NCBI GenBank assembly: GCA_023700845.1
Contig: JAMPYD010000003.1
Coordinates: 1 to 38,171, forward strand
Reading direction: 5' to 3'
Length of the DNA: 38,171 bases
Origin: Elusimicrobiota bacterium
GTDB taxonomy: Bacteria; Elusimicrobiota; Elusimicrobia; UBA1565; UBA9628
How positions within the stretch are numbered: position 1 is the first letter of the stretch; the number at the start of each line of letters is the position of its first letter. Both the position numbers and the translations under genes were made by a program. Shown piece by piece: positions 2,591 to 27,327 of this stretch. Below the pieces are notes generated by a model that had not been told where the DNA came from, did not search any database, and was given only the letters and a program-made list of their open reading frames with translations.

Positions 2591-5350
2591 CTAGCGCCGG
2601 AGGAGGCCTTCGATCAGGTTCTTGCCGGCGTTCTCGAGGAGCTTGCCGACCTTGACCTTGGTCTTGGGGGTCGTCACGGTGCCGGTCACCGCCACGTCGA
2701 CGGCGGGCAGGTTGCCGACCTGGGCGGTCACGGTGAGGTCCAGCGCCTCGGCGGGCAGGTCGATGGTGCCGAGCGCGGAGAGCTGGGCGGCGGTCGAGTC
2801 CATCTCCGACTGGCGAAGGGTCATCACCCCGTCCTTGAAGAGATAGTCGCCGGAGATGCGGCGGACGGTGATGTCGTTGAGGTTCACGCCGAGGCTGAGC
2901 TTCTGGAAGATCAGGATCGGGAAGATCAGGACCTTCACGACCGGCGACTGCAGGGCCATGTCGCCTACGGCGTGGAGCTTCCCCTCGCCGGTGCCGATCT
3001 TGGCGTCGCCGCTGAGCTTCTTCATGTCGGGCGTCACGCCGTAGAGCTCCCAGGACGCCGTGACCGCCTGGAGCCGGGCGTTCGGGTGGAGCAGCGCGCC
3101 GATCTCCACCTTGCCGCGCGTGCGGATCGGAGTCGCGGGCTCGGCCGCGGCGGGCTTGCCGGCCGTCGCGGCCTGGGCGGTCTTCGCGTCGGCCTCGAGC
3201 TTCTTCTTGGCGGCGAGGTAGCGGCCCAGGTCGAAGCGGTCGAGCGAGGCCTCGACCTGGATCTCCGGGACCTTGGCGTAGTCCTTGACCGTCAGGTCCA
3301 TCGTCAAGGTCCCGTCGGCGACCTTGCCCTTGAGGTTCGGCACGTCGATGCGCCGCTCGTCGAAGGAGGCGGTGCCGGTGAAGTCCGCGAGCGCGAGGTC
3401 CGCGACGGTGGCGCCGAGGCCGTTGAACTGCAGCTTGCCGCCGAACAGGGGTTTCTCCTTGGTCCCGGTGACCGACAGCGCGAAGAAGCCCGAGCCCGCC
3501 AGCTTCAGGTCTCGGGTCCGCGGCGTCAGGCGCGTCAGCTCCTCGAGGACGAAGCGGCGGCATTTGACCAGCAGGTCGAAGGCGCCGCGCCCGGTGGGGT
3601 CGGAGACGCCGCCTTCGACGGAGAGCTCGTTGCTCGCGATCTTCACGGCGAAGCGCCGCAGGCGGATGGCGCGCGGGGTGTAGGAGAGGTCCGCGTCCCA
3701 GCGCGAGGGCGGCAGCTCGAGGCCCGGCGGCACGCCGGGGAAGGGAAGGTCCTTGTCGGTCAGCGCCGGGAGGTCGAGGTCGGCGACGACCTCGAGCGCC
3801 GGCTCGGGCGTCCCCGCCAGGGCCTTGGCGACGACGCCGTCGAGGCGCAAGGTCCCGCTCCTGCCCTTGATCACGGCCTTCTCGAAGACGAGGTCGTCGC
3901 CTTTCACGCGCGCGCCGCCGTCGAGGCGCACCGCGGGCACGACGAAGCCCGGCGGCAGCGCGGTCACGGCGACGGGCAGCTCGGAGATCTTGAAGGCGGG
4001 CACGTCCACGGCGAATCGCAGGGCCAGGTCCGGGACGAGCTTGGCCCCGCCCAGCCCGCGCACGACGCCGGAGGCCGACGCCGTCCCTTGCTTGAACTTC
4101 GCCTCGAGGGCCGCGAGCTTCACCTCGCCGCCGGAGCTCGAGGCCTCGCCGTCGAGGCGCATGGCGGGGATGTAGGCCTTGGGCGGGAGCTTGAGCCAGG
4201 GATAGCTGCCGGCGCGGATCTCGGGCACGTCGACGCCGAACTTGGCGCGTCCCTCATAGACCGGAGCCGGCCCGCCGAGGCCCCGGGCGGAGCCGGAGCC
4301 CGAGATCGTCCCCTCGGCCCAGCTGACGCGGAAGGCCTTGAGCGAGGCGGTGGTCCCGTCATAACGCCCCTCGAGCGAGGCGCTCCCGGCGGGGATGCTC
4401 ACGGCCGGGACGCCGGCCGACGGCAGCCACTTCGCGAGCAAGACCGTGTCGAGCCCGGACGTCTTGAGCTCGAGGTCCGCGCCGATGACGGAGGGCGAGG
4501 AGACGGCGATCCGCCCTTTCGCGTCGAGCACAGTCTTCCCCGCCGCGGTCAACGTCGCGTCGAGCTCGGCGACGGGGGCCTCGAGGCCGGAGATCTTGCC
4601 CTTCGCGGTGAAAGCGAGCCCGTCCTGGGCGGCGCTGAGGCGGCGGACGTCCACCTTGAACTTCGCCCGGTCGCCGCGCGCGGGGTGGATGGTGCCCTCG
4701 AAGGCCAGCGCGGCGTCGATGGGCCGCTCGCCCGCCTTGCCTTTGACGCGCGCCGACGCCTCGAGGTCGAAGGGCTCGGCGAGGCTGAAGTCGTCGAGGC
4801 GCAACGTCAGACCGGAGGCCGACCAGACCGCGCCCGAGGCCTTGTCGACATAAGCTGCCGCCCCCCGGGCAACGCGCAGGTGCCGCACGTTGAACTCGGC
4901 CGGGGCTTCCTCGGATGGTTTCTCGGCGGGCGCCGCGGCCGCGGGGGCGGAGGAAGCGAGGGTGTCGTAGTTGAAGGACCCGTCGGCGTTGCGCACTATG
5001 CTCAGCACCAGCCCGTCGGCCGAGGCGGAGGCGATCACGAGCTTGCGCCGCAGCAGGGCCTTCCAGCTCGGGCGCAGGCTGAACGTCTCGACGCTCACGA
5101 AGGTCCCCGCGGCGAAGTCCGGGAGCTCGGAGACCTCGAGGCCCTGCAGGTGCAGGCCCGTCAGGCCGGCGTCGATGCGCGCCAGGCGCACCTCGCGGCC
5201 GAGCTGCTTGCGGGCCTTCTCCAGCACGAAGGCACGGGCCTTCGGCTCCGGGAAGAAGGCCTTGAGCGCGAGCACCGCCGCTCCCGCCGCGAGGACGGCG
5301 AGCAGAGCGAGCGAGACCGAGACCTTGAGCCAGAGCCGGGCGCGTGCCAT
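2591..5350 (-). CDS. AsmA-family (repeating beta-groove) protein
   Basis: N-terminal TM anchor, LSIVRNADGSFNY motif, C-terminal G.IDL...LDL.......V.V.GT...P; 919 aa. Confidence 0.8.
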   Translation of the reverse strand: MARARLWLKVSVSLALLAVLAAGAAVLALKAFFPEPKARAFVLEKARKQLGREVRLARIDAGLTGLHLQGLEVSELPDFAAGTFVSVETFSLRPSWKALLRRKLVIASASADGLVLSIVRNADGSFNYDTLASSAPAAAAPAEKPSEEAPAEFNVRHLRVARGAAAYVDKASGAVWSASGLTLRLDDFSLAEPFDLEASARVKGKAGERPIDAALAFEGTIHPARGDRAKFKVDVRRLSAAQDGLAFTAKGKISGLEAPVAELDATLTAAGKTVLDAKGRIAVSSPSVIGADLELKTSGLDTVLLAKWLPSAGVPAVSIPAGSASLEGRYDGTTASLKAFRVSWAEGTISGSGSARGLGGPAPVYEGRAKFGVDVPEIRAGSYPWLKLPPKAYIPAMRLDGEASSSGGEVKLAALEAKFKQGTASASGVVRGLGGAKLVPDLALRFAVDVPAFKISELPVAVTALPPGFVVPAVRLDGGARVKGDDLVFEKAVIKGRSGTLRLDGVVAKALAGTPEPALEVVADLDLPALTDKDLPFPGVPPGLELPPSRWDADLSYTPRAIRLRRFAVKIASNELSVEGGVSDPTGRGAFDLLVKCRRFVLEELTRLTPRTRDLKLAGSGFFALSVTGTKEKPLFGGKLQFNGLGATVADLALADFTGTASFDERRIDVPNLKGKVADGTLTMDLTVKDYAKVPEIQVEASLDRFDLGRYLAAKKKLEADAKTAQAATAGKPAAAEPATPIRTRGKVEIGALLHPNARLQAVTASWELYGVTPDMKKLSGDAKIGTGEGKLHAVGDMALQSPVVKVLIFPILIFQKLSLGVNLNDITVRRISGDYLFKDGVMTLRQSEMDSTAAQLSALGTIDLPAEALDLTVTAQVGNLPAVDVAVTGTVTTPKTKVKVGKLLENAGKNLIEGLLRR

Positions 5351-7229: not shown

Positions 7230-8503
7230 ACATCTCCCCCGTCCTCCTCGCCCTCCTCCTCGCCGTCCCCGCCTCCGCCCAGCCTCGCAAGAACGTGCTC
7301 GAGACCTTGAGCGAGGCCCTCGACTCCGACAAGGGCTACGAGCCCGCCGAGCGCGCCGCCCTCATGTCCGCCATCAAGGACCGCTTCGCCGACTACGGCG
7401 TGCAGGTCGTCAACCCTCAGCGCGCGAAGGCCATCCCCGTCGTCCTCCACATCCTCACCGAGGGCTCCTTCGACCAGGCTCCCCCCGAGCGCGTCGCCGA
7501 CGTCGCCTTCGCCGCCTATCAGGCCATGTCGCGCGGCGCCGATCCCGAGGTCGTGGAGGGCGTCGCCCTGTACGGCTACCGCAAGAAGGTCTCCGCCGAC
7601 ACCCTCTCCACCTGGGCCAACGGCTACAAGCAGCTCGTCGACGGCAAGGTCCCCGGCGACGTCGCCGCCGACCTCGTGCGCGTCTCCATGGAAAAGAACC
7701 TTCCGGACTCGGACTTCAACACGTTAAAATGGTCGCTCGTCGACGGTGTTAAAAATGGTTTTGATCCAAAGGACTACGCCAGCTATCTGTTCGGCACCTT
7801 GCTGGAAGGAAAGAAAGGCCCCGGCCGCATCAGCGCCGACGCCAAGGCGGTCTTTTTGAAAGCCCGTCGAGCCAAGGCCAAGCCCGTCATCCCCGACTAC
7901 AAGGGCGTCTTCACCAAGGCGCTGCCCCCGCCCCCGGTCTACGTCCCCCCCGCGGTGAAGTCCGTGATCGCCGAGGTCCCCGTCGTCAAAGAGGTCCAGA
8001 AAAAGACCACCGACGCCCTGGGCCGCCTCGGCCTGGGCATCCCGCAGATGCCGCGCGTCACCGCCCCCAAGCCCGGCCGCCCCGCCCCGCCGCCCGCCGA
8101 GGAAGCTCCCGTCGCACTCTCCCCGGGCATCCAGAAGCTATGGCCCGGCCTCGACGCCTCCGCGCGTTCCTATCTGGGCACTCCCTACGTCTGGGGCGGC
8201 ACCACGCATCAGGGCATCGACTGCTCCGCCCTCACGCAGAACACCTTCGGCGAGAACCGGGTCAAGATCCCGCGCGTCAGCCGCGATCAGTGGAAGACGG
8301 GAGACAAGACCGAGACTCTCCGCGAGGGCGACCTCATCTTCTTCAACACCATGGGCGCCGGCGTCTCCCACGTGGGCATGGTCACCGACCCCAAGACCAA
8401 GAAGTTCATCCACGCCTCTTCCTCAAAAGGCGTGATGGTCGCCGACCTGAACAACAAGTGGTTCGGCCAGCGCTACCTAGGCGCGCGCCGCGTCGTTCCT
8501 TAG
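7226..8503 (+). CDS. Secreted NlpC/P60 (C40) peptidoglycan endopeptidase
   Basis: [25 protein letters not shown]; signal peptide; Pro-rich linker; ATGA coupling. Confidence 0.9.
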
Positions 8504-9682
8504 CGCGAACCGCAGGCACGGCCACGCGGCCAAGGTGCCCGCCGTGCCGACGAGGGACAGGATCACCATCGCGGCATACGCGCCGTGCGAGGCGCTGAGG
8601 CTCTCGTACAGGCGCCCGCCCAAAGTGTTCGACGCCGACGCGGCGATATTGAACACCGCCATGTACGCCGCGAACACCGTCGCCTCGGCCCCCTCGGGGC
8701 AGGACTTCGCCGCGAGATCCATCCACGCCAGGCGGAACACGACGCCCGTCAGGCTGAACAGCAACGTCAGGATCAGGATCGAGAGAGGTCCCCGGTAGAA
8801 CAGATACAGCAAGGTCAGGGGCGCGCCGAGCCAGATCGACGCCCGCGCCACCTTCTCCGTCCCCCCCGCCGTGAGCCGCCCGAACAGCGCCGCTCCCGCC
8901 AAGCCGGCGAAGCCCCCCGCCGTGGACAAGCCTCCGATGAAGATCGGCGACAGCTTGAGCGCCTCGCTCTGATAATAGAATTGCGCCGTTCCGAGGAAAG
9001 GGCAAAAGCTCCATAAAAAGATACCCAGCGCGACGGCCCATGCCTTCGGGTCCCGGAACATGCCGGTCAAGCCGCTCCAGCCCCGCGCGGCCGTCTCCTT
9101 CACGTCTCCGACGCCCGACTCGTCGAGCCATCGGGCCGACCACGCCGTCATCAACGGGAAAACAGCCGTCAGTATGAACACCCAGCGATAAGGCGCGTGC
9201 TGCGACAGCCAGCCTCCGCCGAACCCCGTCACGATCAAGGTCCCATACAAGGTCCCGATCGACACGGCCTGATAGATACCGGTCTTCCCTCGCTCCTTGC
9301 CGCGCTCCACCATGACGCCGTCGCACACGACGTCGGACAGCACGAAGCCGACATTCACCAGGATCAGGAGCGTGAGGGCGGCGAGGTAATTGGGCTCCTT
9401 GAGCCCGGCCAACAGCAGCCAGCCCACCGAGGTCAGCAGCGAGACGGCGATCAGGTGCGGCGCGCGCCTTTTCCCCGCCCACGGCAAAAAGTCGGTCAGC
9501 ACGCCGAACAGGGGCTTGATGGTGAGCGGCAAGGTCATCCATGCGACGAACAGCGCGGCCTGGCCGGAACCGAGCTGGAGGGCATCCTTCAGGTAATACG
9601 ACACCGGCTCGTAGGCGAGCCCGCCCATGCCCTGGGCGAAATAGTTCACCGCGAAGAACAGGTAGATCTTGTCGCGCTTCAC
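8477..9682 (-). CDS. MFS transporter, folate-biopterin transporter (BT1)-like
   Basis: YFAQG, LP.TIKPLFG.LTD..P..G.RR.P, SDVVCDG.MVE, CPEG.EATVFA motifs; about 12 TM; GTG start with GAGG. Confidence 0.8.
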
Positions 9683-9692
9683 GCGGTCAACC

Positions 9693-10085
9693 TCAGCCGC
9701 AGGACGACGAGCTTTGGTCTTCTTTGCCCGGGAACCAGGGCATCACGATCACGTCCACGCCCATGTCCTTGACCGCCTTCTCCGTCTCCGGGTCGGGCAG
9801 CTTCTGGTCGTAGCCGAGCACGAGGATGTCCGGATTCTCCTTGCGCATCGTCTCGGCGAAGCTCTTGGCGTTGCCGATCACCACCTTGTCGGCGATGCCC
9901 AGGGCCTCCACCCACTTCTTCCTCTGCTTGGCGGGGACGGCGTTGGGCTTGCGGTTGTGGGAGTCGTTGGACAGCACCACGACGAGGGTGTCGCCCAGGA
10001 CGCGGGCGGAGCGCAGCAGGCGGATATGCGCGGCGTGGACGCGGTTGAAGCAGCCTGCGGCGAAGACGATGACGGGCTTGTTCAG
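9693..10085 (-). CDS. Cytidylyltransferase-like nucleotidyltransferase (TagD/RibL-like); probable CTG start
   Basis: GCFNRVHAAH (HxGH-like), LGDTLVVV, PDILVLGYDQ. The domain begins at a CTG overlapping the tatA stop. Confidence 0.7.
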   Translation of the reverse strand: MNKPVIVFAAGCFNRVHAAHIRLLRSARVLGDTLVVVLSNDSHNRKPNAVPAKQRKKWVEALGIADKVVIGNAKSFAETMRKENPDILVLGYDQKLPDPETEKAVKDMGVDVIVMPWFPGKEDQSSSSCG

Positions 10086-10267
10086 GGTTTCTTGGCCGGG
10101 TCGTCTTGCTTGGGGGCATCGTCGTCGATGCCTTCCTTCAGGCCCTTCTTGAACATGTTCATGGCGCGGCCGCACTGCTTGGCGAATTCAGGGATCTTGC
10201 TGGGTCCGAAAAGGATGAGCGCGACGACGGCGATGATGACGATTTCCGTTGTTCCGAGACCGCCCAT
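10082..10267 (-). CDS. tatA: Twin-arginine translocase TatA/E subunit
   Basis: MGGLGTTEIVII..VALILFGPSKIPE....GRA...FKKGL; GGAGG SD; TGA-TAAAAT upstream. Confidence 0.9.
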   Translation of the reverse strand: MGGLGTTEIVIIAVVALILFGPSKIPEFAKQCGRAMNMFKKGLKEGIDDDAPKQDDPAKKP

Positions 10268-10411
10268 AACGTTCCTCCAGGGTACAGTCACATTTTATCA
10301 TTATTCGGGTTGGGGTGGATTGGGACGATGTGATGCGGTGATGCCTATCACGTCTAAAAAGGAGTCAGGTTTTAGTGGCAAATTGATGGAATTCGCTCTA
10401 CAATCCGGGGA

Positions 10412-10461
10412 TAGGCTGATTCGGACCGGAATTAAGCTGGTCAGCCTAATAGGCGTTAGCG
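10412..10461 (+). mobile_element. Partial/degenerate attC-like site (right half) upstream of the TA cassette
   Basis: GCTGGTCAGC (identical to the L' region of the downstream attC) then GTTAGCG at 10455-10461; TAGGCTGA/TCAGCCTA inverted repeat; no clear RYYYAAC. Confidence 0.5.
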
Positions 10462-10493
10462 TGCCACTAGGCATGACCACTGGCAAGACCTTA

Positions 10494-10514
10494 TATAGTG
10501 TGTTACACTATACT
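10494..10514 (+). promoter_or_regulatory. Palindromic operator TATAGTGT-gtt-ACACTATA overlapping -10 TATACT of the cassette TA operon
   Basis: Perfect 8-bp inverted repeat; TATACT at 10509-10514 lies 6 nt before ATG 10521; typical of TA autorepression. Confidence 0.65.
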
Positions 10515-10520
10515 ATCTGA

Positions 10521-10631
10521 ATGGCCAAGTTTAAATTCGTCGCCAGAAACGGGAAAGTCAGACCTATCAGCACCCGACCCGCTCACAAGAAGGAGAGAGA
10601 ACTCTATGAAGCCTACTTACGCGAAATCTGA
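10521..10631 (+). pseudogene. Internally deleted BrnT-family toxin (36 aa)
   Basis: MAKFKFVARNGKVRPISTRPAHKKERELYEAYLREI*: keeps the BrnT C-terminal R.ISxR.A...ER..YE motif and the overlap with the antitoxin, but lacks the WD..K...N..KHG core. Not in the ORF track. Confidence 0.7.
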
Positions 10632-10854
10632 AAAGGCATACGCAAGCACTTCCGTATTCGAAAGGAAGAAGATCCTTGCGTCCGCCAAACGGCTGAAGAA
10701 GAGCCGCAAACTGCCCACGAGCATCGCGCTCGAGGAAAGCACCATCACTGAGCTAAAGGCTCTTGCTGAGTGGCGAGGCGTGCCCTACCAGGTTCTTATG
10801 CGCATGTTCATTCTGGATGGCCTTCACAAGTCGCAGGCAGCAGTCGCACGCTAA
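10606..10854 (+). CDS. CopG/BrnA-like ribbon-helix-helix antitoxin
   Basis: TSIAL......LK.LA..RGVPYQVLMRM; AAGGAG SD; the stop TAA forms part of attC R''. Confidence 0.8.
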   Translation: MKPTYAKSEKAYASTSVFERKKILASAKRLKKSRKLPTSIALEESTITELKALAEWRGVPYQVLMRMFILDGLHKSQAAVAR

Positions 10855-10928
10855 CCATTGGCTAGACCAGCCGGCGGCCTCGTTTGGTTGGACTGTTGAA
10901 GCGCCGCTGGTCAGCCCCTGCGTTATGC
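10849..10928 (+). mobile_element. attC integron recombination site (80 bp)
   Basis: R'' CGCTAAC, 5 nt, L'' GCTAGACC ... L' GGTCAGC, 6 nt, R' GTTATGC. The L boxes pair with one extrahelical base; AGCCGGCG/CGCCGCT extend the stem with a second. Confidence 0.85.
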
Positions 10929-10958
10929 GCACATTAACATCGGAGGGCGCTAAAACGA

Positions 10959-11234
10959 ATGGCTAATCCGAAGCTTATCTTTGGATTTATTGCATACGGT
11001 GTGGGATCGCTTTTCCTCCTTGTCTCCATCCTTGCTGCCGGATACAGATGGAAAACGGGGTTTTACAGCTCCGGCGTGAACATCGTCCCAACAGTGGCGG
11101 CGCTGCTCGGCAGTCTAAACGGGGTTCCCTGGAAGGCCTTTTTTGTGTTTGCAGTTCTCGACATTGTGAGTTTCTTTATCGGATCGGGCGCAAAGCATTT
11201 ATCGATTGAGCAGAGGAATCCGAACGACGCATGA
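10959..11234 (+). CDS. Small hypothetical membrane protein (about 3 TM), likely the second cassette ORF
   Basis: AT-richer codons, GGAGG upstream, starts just after attC R'; ends CGCATGA, resembling the expected CGCATAAC. Confidence 0.6.
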   Translation: MANPKLIFGFIAYGVGSLFLLVSILAAGYRWKTGFYSSGVNIVPTVAALLGSLNGVPWKAFFVFAVLDIVSFFIGSGAKHLSIEQRNPNDA

Positions 11235-11320
11235 GTGCCTCGGTCCGGTGAGGAATAGCCGCCGCCATTCATCCAGACGCGACGAGACCGCTTCCGGCGT
11301 GAGACGTCGAATGGAGTACT

Positions 11321-11593
11321 ATGGTCGCGGCTTCCAAGGTCATAGTGAAACGCAAAATCACCCGCGCCGCCGCCCATCGCCCGCCCTCGGATCTCCGCAA
11401 AGCGATCGCGTCCGACGCCGCCGCGAGGACCGTTTGGGCCGATATCACGCCGTTGGCGCGCAATGAGTGGATCTGCTGGGTCACATCCGCCAAGAAAGCC
11501 GAGACTCGGACGCACCGTATAGCCGTCGGCCTCGATAAGATGCGCAAAGGCATGCGCCGGCCGTGCTGCTGGCCGGGCTGCCCCCACAGGTGA
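11321..11593 (+). CDS. YdeI/OmpD-associated family protein
   Basis: P.DL..A......W..ITPLARNEWICWV.SAKK.ETR..RI and terminal RRPCCWPGCPHR. Confidence 0.75.
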   Translation: MVAASKVIVKRKITRAAAHRPPSDLRKAIASDAAARTVWADITPLARNEWICWVTSAKKAETRTHRIAVGLDKMRKGMRRPCCWPGCPHR

Positions 11594-11627
11594 AGGTCCC
11601 CGACTCTCATCCCGACGGAGGAGCGCC

Positions 11628-12113
11628 ATGAGCAAGATCGCGAAGAACACCATCTGCCTCTGGTACGAACGCGACGCCGAGGAGGCGGCGAAGTTCTACG
11701 CCAAGACCTTCCCGGATTCATCGGTCGGCGCCGTGCATCGCGCGCCGGGAGATTTCCCCTCGGGCAAGCAGGGCGACGCGCTGACCGTCGAGTTCACCGT
11801 GCTGGGCATCCCCTGCCTCGGGCTCAACGGCGGGCCCGCGTTCCAGCCCAGCGAGGCGTTCTCGTTCCAGGTCGCGACCGAGGATCAGGCCGAGACCGAC
11901 CGCTATTGGAACGCGATCGTCGGCAACGGCGGCCAAGAGAGCGAATGCGGCTGGTGCAAGGACAAGTGGGGCATCTCCTGGCAGATCACGCCGGTCGCGC
12001 TGACCAAGGCGTATACCAGCCCCGATCGCGCCGTCGCCAAGCGGGCCTTCGACGCGATGATGACGATGAAGAAGATCGACGTCGCCAAGATCGAGGCCGC
12101 GGTCCGCGGCTAG
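11628..12113 (+). CDS. VOC/PhnB-like (3-demethylubiquinone-9 3-methyltransferase domain) protein
   Basis: CLWY..DAEEAA.FY, LNGGP.F..SEAFSFQV, CGWCKDKWG.SWQI; GGAGG SD. Confidence 0.9.
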   Translation: MSKIAKNTICLWYERDAEEAAKFYAKTFPDSSVGAVHRAPGDFPSGKQGDALTVEFTVLGIPCLGLNGGPAFQPSEAFSFQVATEDQAETDRYWNAIVGNGGQESECGWCKDKWGISWQITPVALTKAYTSPDRAVAKRAFDAMMTMKKIDVAKIEAAVRG

Positions 12114-12147
12114 CGCCCGGCCGTTTTTAGGTAGACTGTCGGCCGCA

Positions 12148-12166
12148 ACTCGGTCCTGGACCGAGT
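12148..12166. repeat. GC-rich palindrome, copy 1 (ACTCGGTCC-T-GGACCGAGT)
   Basis: Perfect 9-bp arms; the 17-bp core is identical at 27336-27352. Confidence 0.75.
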
Positions 12167-12177
12167 CCGGCTGACCC

Positions 12178-12951
12178 TTGAACTACCTGATCATCTGCGC
12201 CGTCGCTTTGGTCGCCTCGGGCCTGACCTTCTTCTCCGGGTTCGGCCTCGGGACCTTGCTCCTGCCCGCCTTCTCGCTGTTCTTCCCCGTCAGCGAGGCC
12301 GTGGCCTTGACCGCCGTCGTGCACGGGCTCAACAACCTCTTCAAGCTCTTCCTGGTCGGACGTCACGCGAACCGGAAGGTCCTCCTGACCTTCGGGCTTC
12401 CCGCCATCGCCGCGTCCTTCGCCGGCGCCGCCTTGCTCCTGTGGCTCTCGGCCATCCCCCCCGTCGCCAGCTACGAGGCCTTCGGCCGGCTCTGGCTCGT
12501 CATGCCCGTCAAGCTCGTCATCGGCTTCCTGCTGCTCGTGTTCGCCGCCATCGAGGTGGTCCCGAGCCTGTCGTCCCTGACATTCGGCCCGCGCTACATG
12601 GCCCTGGGCGGAGCGCTCAGCGGGTTCTTCGGGGGCCTCTCGGGCATGCAGGGAGCCCTGCGCTCGGCGTTCCTGGTGCGGGCCGGATTGGCGAAGGAGG
12701 AGTTCATCGCCACCGGGGTCGTCATCGCCTGCCTGATCGACGCCTCGCGCATCGGCGTCTACGCGCGCTCCGGAGCCTTCGCCGACGGCGGGCGCGACCA
12801 CGGCCTGCTGGCCGCCGCCGTCCTGTCCGCCTTCGCCGGAGCGTACCTGGGCAACCGCTATCTCAAGAAGCTCACGATGCAGGGCATCCAGAGGCTCGTG
12901 GCCGCGATGCTCGCGGCGCTGGCGGTTGGTTTGATGGCCGGAATCCTGTAA
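12178..12951 (+). CDS. TauE/SafE (TSUP) family membrane transporter
   Basis: SGFGLGTLL.P and GALSGFFGGLSG.QGALR motifs; TTG start. Confidence 0.8.
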   Translation: MNYLIICAVALVASGLTFFSGFGLGTLLLPAFSLFFPVSEAVALTAVVHGLNNLFKLFLVGRHANRKVLLTFGLPAIAASFAGAALLLWLSAIPPVASYEAFGRLWLVMPVKLVIGFLLLVFAAIEVVPSLSSLTFGPRYMALGGALSGFFGGLSGMQGALRSAFLVRAGLAKEEFIATGVVIACLIDASRIGVYARSGAFADGGRDHGLLAAAVLSAFAGAYLGNRYLKKLTMQGIQRLVAAMLAALAVGLMAGIL

Positions 12952-13047
12952 ATCCACGGAACAAATCGGGCCCCTCGATCGTATGTATAGTGATGAGGAA
13001 TCCCCGAACCCCGCCGCCCTCCCGCCCCTTTCGATGGGCCCCGCCCA

Positions 13048-13076
13048 TTGAATTGTATAGACATTCGTATTACACT
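13048..13076 (+). promoter_or_regulatory. Promoter TTGAAT-17-TACACT, 8 nt before the toxin ATG
   Basis: Hexamers with a 17-bp spacer. Confidence 0.55.
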
Positions 13077-13084
13077 ATATCGAG

Positions 13085-13345
13085 ATGACCGATCTGCGCT
13101 GGTCATCGTCGAAGAGCGAGGAGCTCAAGTCCGAGCGAGGCGTCTCCTTTGAAGAGATCATTCTCGCGAGGCTTGTCGGGGCGAAGGACCATCCGAGCCG
13201 CCCGAACCAGAGCATCCTTCTCTTCGAGCTCCAAGGGTACATATGGGTCGTGCCTTACGTTATCCGCGACGACGAAATATTCCTGAAGACGCTGTTTCCC
13301 AGCCGGAAATACACGAAGCTCTGGAAGCAGGGAGACCTCGAATGA
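13085..13345 (+). CDS. BrnT-like (RelE superfamily) toxin
   Basis: W...K...LK.ERGVSFEEI, HP.RPNQ, Y..VVPYV, FLKT.FPSRK.TK. Confidence 0.85.
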   Translation: MTDLRWSSSKSEELKSERGVSFEEIILARLVGAKDHPSRPNQSILLFELQGYIWVVPYVIRDDEIFLKTLFPSRKYTKLWKQGDLE

Positions 13346-13590
13346 AGAAGTCCGCATTGAGCCGTTCCGAGAAAACCATCGAGAACGCGCTGTTGCGCGG
13401 CGAGTACCGCCCCGCCAAGCCCGCCGACCTGTCCGCCATCGCGGAGGCCATCGCGCGGCGGAAGAAGAACGCCGTGCTCAATATCCGGGTCAACCGTGAG
13501 GACCTCGAAAGCATCAAGCGCAAGGCCAAGCACCTCGGCATCCCCTATCAGACCCTCATCTCCGAGCTGATCCATCACCACGCGATCTGA
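13342..13590 (+). CDS. CopG/BrnA-like antitoxin
   Basis: K...LNIRV...DL..IK.KA...GIPYQTLISE.IH; ATGA overlap with the toxin. Confidence 0.85.
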   Translation: MKKSALSRSEKTIENALLRGEYRPAKPADLSAIAEAIARRKKNAVLNIRVNREDLESIKRKAKHLGIPYQTLISELIHHHAI

Positions 13591-13633
13591 CGCCGGCCTT
13601 GCCCCCGGGCGCGTACAACGCTAGAATCGCGTC

Positions 13634-14314
13634 ATGAAACGCTTCCTCCCCCTATATCTCCTCCTCGCCGCCGCCTGCAACCAGACCGCCGCCTCCGGCC
13701 CCGCCGCGGGCAAGGCCATGTTCAACCAGGCCGGCTGCGCGTCCTGCCATAAGGTCGGAGAGCTGGGCAGCGCCGTCGGCCCGGACCTGACCATGGTGGG
13801 CCTGCGCCACAGCCCCGAGTGGCTCGAGCTGTACATCAAGGATCCCCAGGCCTGGAAGAAGGATACCTTGATGCCCAACCGGCGCATGTCCGACGAGGCG
13901 CGCAAGGCCATCGTCGAGTACATGGCCATGCTCAAGGGCCAGGACTGGGGCAAGGGCGAGCGGCCCTGGGATAAGCCTTCACTATTAAAGGATCCGGTCG
14001 CGCGCGGCCGCGTGCTCTACAACCGCGCCGGGTGCGTGGGCTGCCACGGCGCCGACGCCGCGGGCGGCTATCCTAATAATAACGTGAAGGGCGGCCTGAT
14101 CCCCCCGCTGAACAAGGCCGTCGAGGGCTTCACCAAGGCGGAGCTGATCAAGAAGATCAAGTCGGGCGTGCCGGAGACCCAGAAGGAAGACCCGAAGGGG
14201 CCGGCGCCGATGATCCGCATGCCCGCGTGGGGCGAGGTCCTCGACGAGAGCGAGCTCGACGCCGTGGCGAGCTACCTGCTGAGCCTGAAGTCGGGCGAAA
14301 AAGCCGACTTTTAG
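13634..14314 (+). CDS. Lipoprotein dihaem cytochrome c (paralogue 1)
   Basis: Lipobox LAAAC; CASCH and CVGCH; Met ligands in LMPN and RMPAW; TTGCCC-17-TAGAAT 6 nt before the ATG. Confidence 0.9.
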   Translation: MKRFLPLYLLLAAACNQTAASGPAAGKAMFNQAGCASCHKVGELGSAVGPDLTMVGLRHSPEWLELYIKDPQAWKKDTLMPNRRMSDEARKAIVEYMAMLKGQDWGKGERPWDKPSLLKDPVARGRVLYNRAGCVGCHGADAAGGYPNNNVKGGLIPPLNKAVEGFTKAELIKKIKSGVPETQKEDPKGPAPMIRMPAWGEVLDESELDAVASYLLSLKSGEKADF

Positions 14315-26352: not shown

Positions 26353-27327
26353 ATGGCCGTCGACAAAAGGTTCGTCCTCACCGGCGCGAAGAGGGTCCTG
26401 GACTCGCGCCCCATGTACGCGCAGGTCGTCGTCACCGACGACTGCAACCTGACCTGCTCCTACTGCGACGAGTACACCCCGGGCGCGCCGATCATCCCGC
26501 TCGAGACGATGAAGGCAAGAATCGATAAGTTGGATGAGCTCGGCGTCCTCGTCTACGATTTCCTGGGCGGCGAGACGATGATGCATCCGGACATCGCTGA
26601 GCTGGTGCGCCACGTCAAATCCAAGCGCGGCGGCTCGAACCTCGCGACCATCATCACCAACGGGTTCTTGCTCACGAAGAAGAACATCCTCGACCTGAAC
26701 GAAGCCGGTCTCGATTTCATGCAGGTCTCGGTCGACACTCTCCATCCCACCGACTGGTCGGACAAATCGCTGAAATCCGTCCTGCCGAAATTGAAGCTGC
26801 TCGCCGAAACCGCAAAATTCCAAGTGGAAATCCAGTCGGTGCTCAACGAAGAGAACCTCAACAACTACGACGAATTCCGGGCCACTTTGAAAGACCTGCC
26901 TTTCGCATTCGGATTTTCAATTATGCATGGCAAAGGCGGCCAGATCGCCATCAAAGGCGAGAAATATCTGGCGCTGCTCGACAAGTACGGCGTCTTCGAG
27001 GGCGTGAACTTCTACGGCGAGCACCTCAAGGAGATGCTCGCGGGCGATTTCTCCCGCCCGTGGAAGTGCCTCGGCGGCTTCAAGTTCCTCTACGTGACCG
27101 CCGCGGGCTCCATCCAGTGGTGCGCCCAGCAGCGCGGCGTCTCCTTCGACCTGATGAGCGCGACCCCGGAGCGCCTGAGGACGAACAATGTCCACAAGCC
27201 CTGCGAGGCCGGCTGCTCCCTGGGCTGCGTGCGCATGGTCTCCCACACCTTGGGCGAGCCGCTGAAGACCTTCGGCGCCAGCGTCAAGCTCGCGATCGGC
27301 ATGAGCCGGCCCAAGTCTCGTCATTGA
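26353..27327 (+). CDS. Radical SAM protein with C-terminal Cys cluster (SPASM/twitch-like)
   Basis: [17 protein letters not shown]; [16 protein letters not shown]. Confidence 0.9.

Follow-up and report, generated by a model that had tools for sequence, protein, structure and literature searches.

How does a block of integron cassettes come to lie beside tatA in a genome in which no integron integrase has been found? The question is raised by contig JAMPYD010000003.1 of an Elusimicrobiota bacterium (metagenome-assembled genome, MAG, GCA_023700845.1), the whole 38,171-nucleotide stretch of which is called the window here. An initial annotation, made from the letters of the window, described an integrase-less array of two cassettes with one complete attC recombination site, and took it for an insertion of the CALIN type (cluster of attC sites lacking an integrase) or at a secondary site, now in decay. 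Comparison with genomes of the same genus indicates that the locus is probably an integron cassette array headed by its own attI and promoter, without an integrase gene, partly decayed, and lodged in the spacer that separates tatA from a cytochrome c gene.

The attC site of cassette 1

The complete attC was borne out by its own structure and by its relatives. The core runs from R'' (GCACGCTAAC, 10846-10855, with CTAAC at 10851-10855) to R' (GTTATGC, 10923-10929), which fits the R' consensus GTTRRRY at 6 of 7 positions. R'' and R' flank imperfect inverted repeats, the inner boxes being L'' (GGCTAGACCAGCC) and L' (GCTGGTCAGCC). The minus strand of 10845-10932 folded into a single long hairpin with the R and L boxes paired and an internal loop; a bulged T and a bulged G, 8 nt apart on the 3' arm, are its extrahelical bases. 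The fold energy (-21.2 kcal/mol, z -2.25) was equalled by 5 of 200 shuffles. Folding energy on its own is weak evidence, and as it beats shuffles only moderately, the case for an attC depends on how the site compares with those of relatives.

When 40 relatives were searched at the DNA level, numerous copies of the site's 75-bp core turned up in genomes of the same genus, often lined up in rows. Fifteen full-length copies were aligned (mean column identity 87%). Their consensus hairpin has compensatory changes in 7 of 26 pairs, with 99.5% of cells paired; this covariation was reached by 0 of 500 shuffles, and slid controls did not come close either. A covariance model built from copies of the family (R1) was used in place of the general attC model of IntegronFinder, and scored 10844-10931 at 95.8 bits (E 3.9e-25); the next minus-strand match in the window scored 14 bits. 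With filters off, R1 found no further attC above 17.5 bits in the whole window, except for a weak opposite-strand echo of the same site. The best other match (27048-27131, 17.5 bits) has many broken pairs and was treated as noise.

In relatives, R1 finds arrays of roughly 20-30 attC sites, and the arrays of two of them (G010 and G019) abut integrases that match TIGR02249 at 411-434 bits (cut-off 265). Integrase, the module behind it and cassettes are all co-oriented in the relatives' integrons. An exact pattern for the attC family was found in 53 stretches of a species-level genome collection, 48 of them in MAGs labelled Elusimicrobia, Elusimicrobiota or Endomicrobium; 4 of the other 5 differ in match length and are probably chance. 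This distribution points to an uncultured member of that phylum as the source of the window. A search of the window's MAG for sister sites with exact GCTGGTCAGC was uninformative (17 matches vs 12 for the reversed control).

The window site is a genuine integron attC. The modest advantage of the fold over shuffles, and Rfam, which over 9500-14000 gave no matching family (one sub-threshold match, to an unrelated one), might suggest something with no relation to integrons, either a palindrome due to chance or some generic extragenic repeat. This explanation is scarcely credible, given the compensatory changes in 7 pairs, the arrays directly beside TIGR02249-positive integrases and cassette ends that obey the G|TT rule.

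The putative attI-promoter module at the left boundary

Homology to the copies of cassette 1 in two relatives (G013 and G011) starts at 10453-10455, i.e. at the GTT of a core that ends in GTTAG. This core (GCTGGTCAGCC...GTTAG, 10436-10459) had been described as the right half of an upstream attC, and no attI had been considered evident. It does not fold into a hairpin (z 0.03), and its GCTGGTCAGCC (10436-10446) repeats the L' arm of the attC letter for letter; both earlier statements gave way when it was compared with integrase-linked sites, among which it reads as the core of an attI.

Downstream of the integrases of G010 and G019 lies a module of the form TGGCGAA...TACAAT, ~45 variable bases, GACCAGC.TAATC...AA|GTTAGG, followed by cassette sequence. 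TIGR02249 gave 22 intI matches above cut-off in 17 of the 38 genomes of the genus. Two of the 22 integrases were dropped from the module count because the contig ends at the gene. For 18 of the other 20, a module of ~100 bp was found within 1.1 kb downstream, in the orientation of the integrase and ending in GTTAG where cassettes begin; for the 2 integrases without it, just 643 and 135 bases of sequence were available. An nhmmer profile of the 18 intI-linked modules had one match in the window, 10375-10459 (34.7 bits, E 1.1e-9, profile positions 9-96 of 96). From these 18 modules a sequence-only model (R2) was built as well, and it scored this stretch at 33.6 bits (E 7.4e-10), its sole match at E<0.01, with nothing else below E 0.08. 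A regular expression for the tatA-type attI core had matched tatA loci only; the kinship to integrase-linked sites emerged by eye, and then by the profiles.

TACAAT is invariant or nearly so across the 18 modules, and the one plus-strand promoter-like site of a consensus scan fell at 10375-10404. On the strength of the homology to intI-linked modules, the end at the GTT where cassette homology begins and the promoter-like site, 10375-10459 is read as an attI with a Pc-type promoter, which would recombine at G|TT (10455|10456) and drive the cassettes.

One contig from another groundwater run (run X4) joins 10281 to 10375, with 93 bases skipped. A related population thus has the attI module even nearer to tatA.

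The tatA-cytochrome c spacer in relatives

The locus has a conserved backbone in which tatA faces a cytochrome c gene (13634 in the window). The spacer between them is 40-150 bp only in G013, G023, G017 and G009; 0.9 kb in G005 and G018, of which G005 has the promoter half of the attI module; 2 kb in G014; 3.3 kb in the window; 3.7 kb in G001, with an attI module (69 bits); 4.9 kb in G004, where the promoter half of an attI was found by model and the rest by eye, along with two weak attC matches; and >5.4 kb in G012, with the attI module and five attC sites (R1, filters off). The unit behind the GTT is brnT-brnA in the window, another one, shared, in G004 and G012, and a third in G001. By this comparison the tatA-cytochrome c site appears to be shared between species while its content turns over. 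The lower G+C noted for the window block was confirmed (0.48-0.58 over 10200-11300 vs 0.62-0.75 in the flanks).

An empty site at tatA in relatives had been suggested as a check on the array. The closest relatives, G015 and G011 (89% identity), do lack the block, but what they lack is larger than annotated (~10329-12120), and the 80-bp spacer of G011 keeps part of the unit found behind attI in G004, G012 and other arrays. This remnant argues for loss in G011 over gain in the window.

These observations bear on the proposed secondary-site origin, by which free cassettes were inserted at an attG-type site in an ordinary spacer, giving a small CALIN or a SALIN (single attC site lacking an integrase). 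A single detectable attC, no integrase and closest relatives without the block are what such an insertion would leave, and the route has been proposed for SALINs and small CALINs in the excerpts available of 10.1101/2022.09.11.507474. It is nonetheless very improbable here: the left junction is a homologue of integrase-linked attI over ~85 nt including the promoter, the same module stands at the same locus in other species, and the 'empty' spacer of G011 points to loss there rather than gain here. The earlier classification stands as to integron cassettes and is not supported as to the secondary site; as to CALINs, the default threshold is missed.

Several attI, integrase-linked or not, have as their first unit one that lacks an open reading frame (ORF), starts GTTCGAC and contains the perfect palindrome ACTGTTTCCGGAAACAGT. 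It was seen at L032 ~1440-1500 (G004), L040 ~5150-5225 (G012), L024 ~1420-1500 (G011) and on C203 of the window's own MAG at ~900-980, and a remnant of it lies in the tatA-TauE spacer of G011. The palindrome has the form CTGT-N8-ACAG, which we take to be that of the E. coli LexA box and regard as a candidate likeness only.

Cassette 1 (brnT-brnA)

At the start of cassette 1, GTTAGCGTGC (10455-10464) is the exact complement of GCACGCTAAC (10846-10855), as had been claimed; complementary ends are expected of a cassette that formerly existed as a circle, joined at G|TT. The unit is also found in G011:C26, G013:C90 and G010:C1, in other contexts and at 83-93% identity. The homologous cassette in G013 is bounded by the same pair of ends, and the G011 contig stops at the cassette start. 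In G013 and G010 the unit sits behind an attC, and a run X4 contig also puts the cassette start behind an attC. Judged from these copies, cassette 1 appears to be a mobile unit.

The brnT of the window retains codons 1-7 and the last 29, in frame, and matches the BrnT_toxin profile at positions 58-77 only (the last 20; 17.4 bits vs a cut-off of 34.5). The cassette copies of relatives are 234 bp longer; the BrnT of G011 (114 aa, 58 bits) passes Pfam, and run X4 contigs run on into undeleted brnT exactly at 10542. The stop codon of brnA (TAA) lies inside R'' of the attC, with which the gene shares its orientation, and the product has 92.7% amino acid identity to the G010 copy. With the toxin domain partial, the two genes do not form a complete BrnT/BrnA pair. 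Because of the 234-bp in-frame deletion relative to the full brnT of relatives, cassette 1 is read as a toxin-antitoxin cassette that has lost its toxin, of which only the antitoxin could be functional. A palindrome upstream of brnT, kept in the G011 and G013 copies, is likely the operator of a promoter of the cassette's own.

Further observations concern this gene pair. The attC body attached to the brnT-brnA cassette (83-93% nucleotide identity) varies from genome to genome, and three were seen (window 10846-10929; L037 ~4410-4500; L038 2490-2605; L039 1875-1985). Homology between copies ends right after R'' plus CATT, and the canonical crossover at G|TT of R' gives no explanation for the swapped body. 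In G013 (L039), brnT has the start codon ATA, not ATG, which may be a second, independent silencing of the toxin. A second BrnT-like/BrnA-like pair (13085-13345 and 13243-13590; weak Pfam matches) lies at 12945-13627 of the window, between the TauE gene and the cytochrome c gene. Its region is present in G011, and G015 has 12 bp in its place; no attC-like ends were found around it (12945-13627). In G010 (L054), a BrnT/BrnA-like pair lies between intI and attI.

Cassette 2 and the genes to its right

The annotated start of cassette 2 (TTATGCGCAC at 10924) and the ORF end CGCATGA (11228-11234) are both present. The ORF (10959-11234) encodes a hydrophobic protein of 91 aa with no Pfam family, apparently an orphan membrane protein. 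It had no DNA match in the 37 other genomes of the genus. The protein has only 3 relatives (80-89% identity), all on contigs of ~1 kb, and a metagenome search for its loci gave 594 pattern matches, of which 0 were confirmed. After the ORF comes a stretch (11240-11283) that matches another attC subfamily in its loop and 3' arm (GGTGAGGAAT..GCCGCCGCC..TCATCC; ~30 copies in the arrays of relatives). This remnant forms no hairpin (z -0.67) and has no R1 match, most of its 5' arm having diverged. The attC of cassette 2 is dead. The picture of a decaying array thus held up, in the in-frame deletion of brnT and in a second attC without R' and most of the 5' arm.

No attC-like ends were found behind the OmdA, VOC-like and TauE genes of the window. 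In G042 an OmdA homologue follows an attC at a distance of ~290 bp, and in G010:C2 a VOC homologue stands ~2.9 kb downstream of an attI and one attC; the OmdA and VOC-like genes may be fossil cassettes. A terminator-like hairpin followed by TTTTT (12106-12124) comes immediately after the VOC-like gene, where the block absent from G015 and G011 ends on the right.

Table 1. Features of the tatA-cytochrome c locus, in positions of the window
Feature	Positions	Strand	Basis
tatA, conserved left flank, outside the element	10082..10291	minus	Pfam TatA_B_E, 60.6 bits; syntenic in all fetched tatA loci
Putative attI with Pc-like promoter module, ending in core GTTAG	10375..10459	plus	nhmmer and R2 matches to intI-linked modules
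Sigma-70-like promoter within the module (GTGGCA, 18 nt, TACAAT), pointing towards the cassettes	10375..10404	plus	Consensus scan, 9/12 matches
Cassette 1, 468 bp: deleted brnT, brnA, attC	10456..10923	plus	Ends form a 10-bp exact inverted repeat; unit in relatives
Palindrome TATAGTGT-GTT-ACACTATA, upstream of brnT	10494..10512	no strand	Read from sequence; kept in G011 and G013 copies
brnT remnant, 36 aa, 78 codons lost in frame	10521..10631	plus	Partial Pfam BrnT_toxin match
brnA-type (CopG/ribbon-helix-helix) antitoxin, 82 aa, intact	10606..10854	plus	Pfam CopG_antitoxin, 24.8 bits (cut-off 28)
attC of cassette 1, intact	10846..10929	minus (= attC bottom strand)	R1; hairpin fold; family covariation
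Cassette 2: ORF and decayed attC	10924..~11290	plus	Starts at TT of R'
attC remnant, second subfamily; loop and L' arm kept, L'' diverged or lost, R' GTT lost	11228..11283	minus	Motif match to attC of relatives
OmdA-family gene (11321-11593) and 3-dmu-9_3-mt/VOC-like gene (11628-12113)	11321..12113	plus	Pfam; absent at the locus in G015 and G011

Absence of an integrase

The statement that no intI is evident was upheld: TIGR02249 had no match on the contig (C365) and none over cut-off in the 71%-complete MAG (best 77 bits vs 265). The 2 kb upstream of the window attI and of 10 other integrase-less attI were searched with three genus integrases (tblastn), and no integrase remnant was found (best E 0.19). 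As measured against a complete integron, the array has no adjoining intI, and it has an attI at its head by homology.

The main rival explanation starts from this absence. A whole integron would once have stood at this locus, flanked by tatA and the cytochrome c gene; it would then have lost its integrase by deletion, and no recombination would have taken place since. An attI is expected to remain after such a loss, the toxin is deleted, the second attC is decayed and no integrase was found in the MAG; integrase loss is also named as one origin of CALINs in the available excerpts of Cury et al. 2016 (PMC4889954). We consider this history unlikely, and it fits less well than an array served from elsewhere. 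The attI module lies just 83 bp from the start of tatA, and no trace of an integrase came from the upstream searches. G001, G012, G004 and G005 are also without an integrase beside tatA, and yet the first unit behind attI differs.

Integrase-less attI sites across the genus

R2 had 155 matches at E<=0.001 in 34 of the 38 genomes of the genus, and 1 match in 5 control genomes of sister families. By a count made by eye, ~119 of the 150 listed matches are near full length, vs 22 intI genes. In G019 (1 contig) and G010 (3 contigs), one integrase-linked attI and four others were found each. Five of these eight integrase-less attI are followed by correctly oriented attC (1 to >6 of them), and three by none. 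The MAG of the window holds further matches: one on C203 (70 bits), behind the gene for a 227-aa secreted protein, not an integrase, and followed by an attC; one at the start of contig C362, followed by two attC sites; and one on C471, with no attC. By homology, then, the window array appears to be one of several integrase-less, attI-headed 'satellite' arrays in the genus. As a separate observation, the sole integrase of G019 (L056) carries an in-frame TAG.

A wider proposal is put forward tentatively, with rather more doubt than confidence: that the integron of this genus is a distributed one. In each genome a single integrase (at times two or three, and in many cases none detected) would serve several attI-plus-promoter sites, each heading its own array at a fixed chromosomal locus such as the tatA-cytochrome c spacer, and many CALINs and SALINs would be working satellite platforms, not debris or attG insertions.

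Proposed mechanism and evidence weighed against it

For the window, we infer the history of the locus, and service in trans, as follows. An integron integrase encoded elsewhere would have inserted the cassettes at the G|TT of the attI (10455|10456), and the promoter in the attI module would probably transcribe the array. Being bounded by the attI and an intact attC, cassette 1 could in principle still be excised by such an integrase. Cassette 2 and the genes that follow would be frozen in place, as the attC of cassette 2 has decayed.

Several points weigh against an attI-headed array served in this way. The match of the window attI to its family is weak (34 bits vs 50-75 bits for most integrase-linked sites), and the roles of attI and promoter are assigned from position and homology. 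The different first cassettes at tatA might also stem from separate histories, not from turnover at a single inherited site. This genome has no known integrase, and as 71% of it is covered by the MAG, service in trans is conjectural. Two related strains may also be mixed in the bin: C410:4924-6568 of the same MAG is a second copy of window 8477-10123 at 85% identity, so the attI and attC contigs of the MAG need not all belong to the strain of the window. The joint that excision of cassette 1 would leave between attI and cassette 2 (10455 to 10924) was not seen in contigs of runs X1-X4, which drop rare forms. Lastly, the toxin deletion and the attC decay point towards an inactive relic.

Comparison with known systems

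Integrase-less clusters of attC sites (CALINs) and single sites (SALINs) have already been described, and integrase loss, rearrangement and insertion at genomic attG have been proposed as their origins (PMC4889954; 10.1101/2022.09.11.507474; excerpts). Like them, the window array has attC-bounded cassettes, has no integrase nearby, is small and chromosomal, and could in principle be mobilised in trans. It differs from a CALIN in that one attC passes R1, below the default threshold of two, the second being a remnant without R'. The excerpts of 10.1101/2022.09.11.507474 define a SALIN by a lone attC, the lack of an integrase and 'no other att integration sites nearby', whereas the window has an attI homologue 390 bp upstream of the attC. 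In contrast to CALINs or SALINs derived from attG, an origin by attG insertion is unsupported for the window array.

According to the part of PMC4889954 that was available, attI is not searched for outside classes 1-3, so attI heads on integrase-less arrays would go unseen. A lone attC that standard finders would drop, or class as a secondary-site insertion, can be part of a platform with an attI at its head. Should the satellites prove active, a single integrase could supply several expression sites, and models of cassette expression and array stability would change. Judged from the listing of publications, no account of integrons in Elusimicrobiota was found. No statement on attI-headed CALINs was found in the partly available literature either; the query on orphan attI was uninformative, so prior publication is possible.

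The integrons and CALINs of Xanthomonas resemble the present locus in that arrays stand at the same chromosomal position across species and undergo integrase loss and decay, but in the excerpts of 10.1101/2025.06.18.660453 these CALINs are defined by attC sites only, with no statement on an attI head such as that of the window. The role of toxin-antitoxin cassettes such as BrnT/BrnA in chromosomal integrons is discussed in PMC13108822, as far as the available part of that paper goes. Cassette 1 shares with BrnT/BrnA integron cassettes the two-gene unit, a putative promoter of its own and an operator-like palindrome within an array, but its toxin lacks 78 of 114 codons.

The sedentary chromosomal integrons, e.g. 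the Vibrio superintegron, whose attC repeats are lineage-specific and nearly identical to one another, differ from the window array, which has no integrase and only two recognisable cassettes. They are closer to the parent system of the genus, which has some 20-30 attC copies in a few conserved subfamilies and includes toxin-antitoxin cassettes. In the genus, integrase, attI and cassettes are co-oriented, an arrangement of integrase and cassettes that also occurs in Treponema and other lineages.

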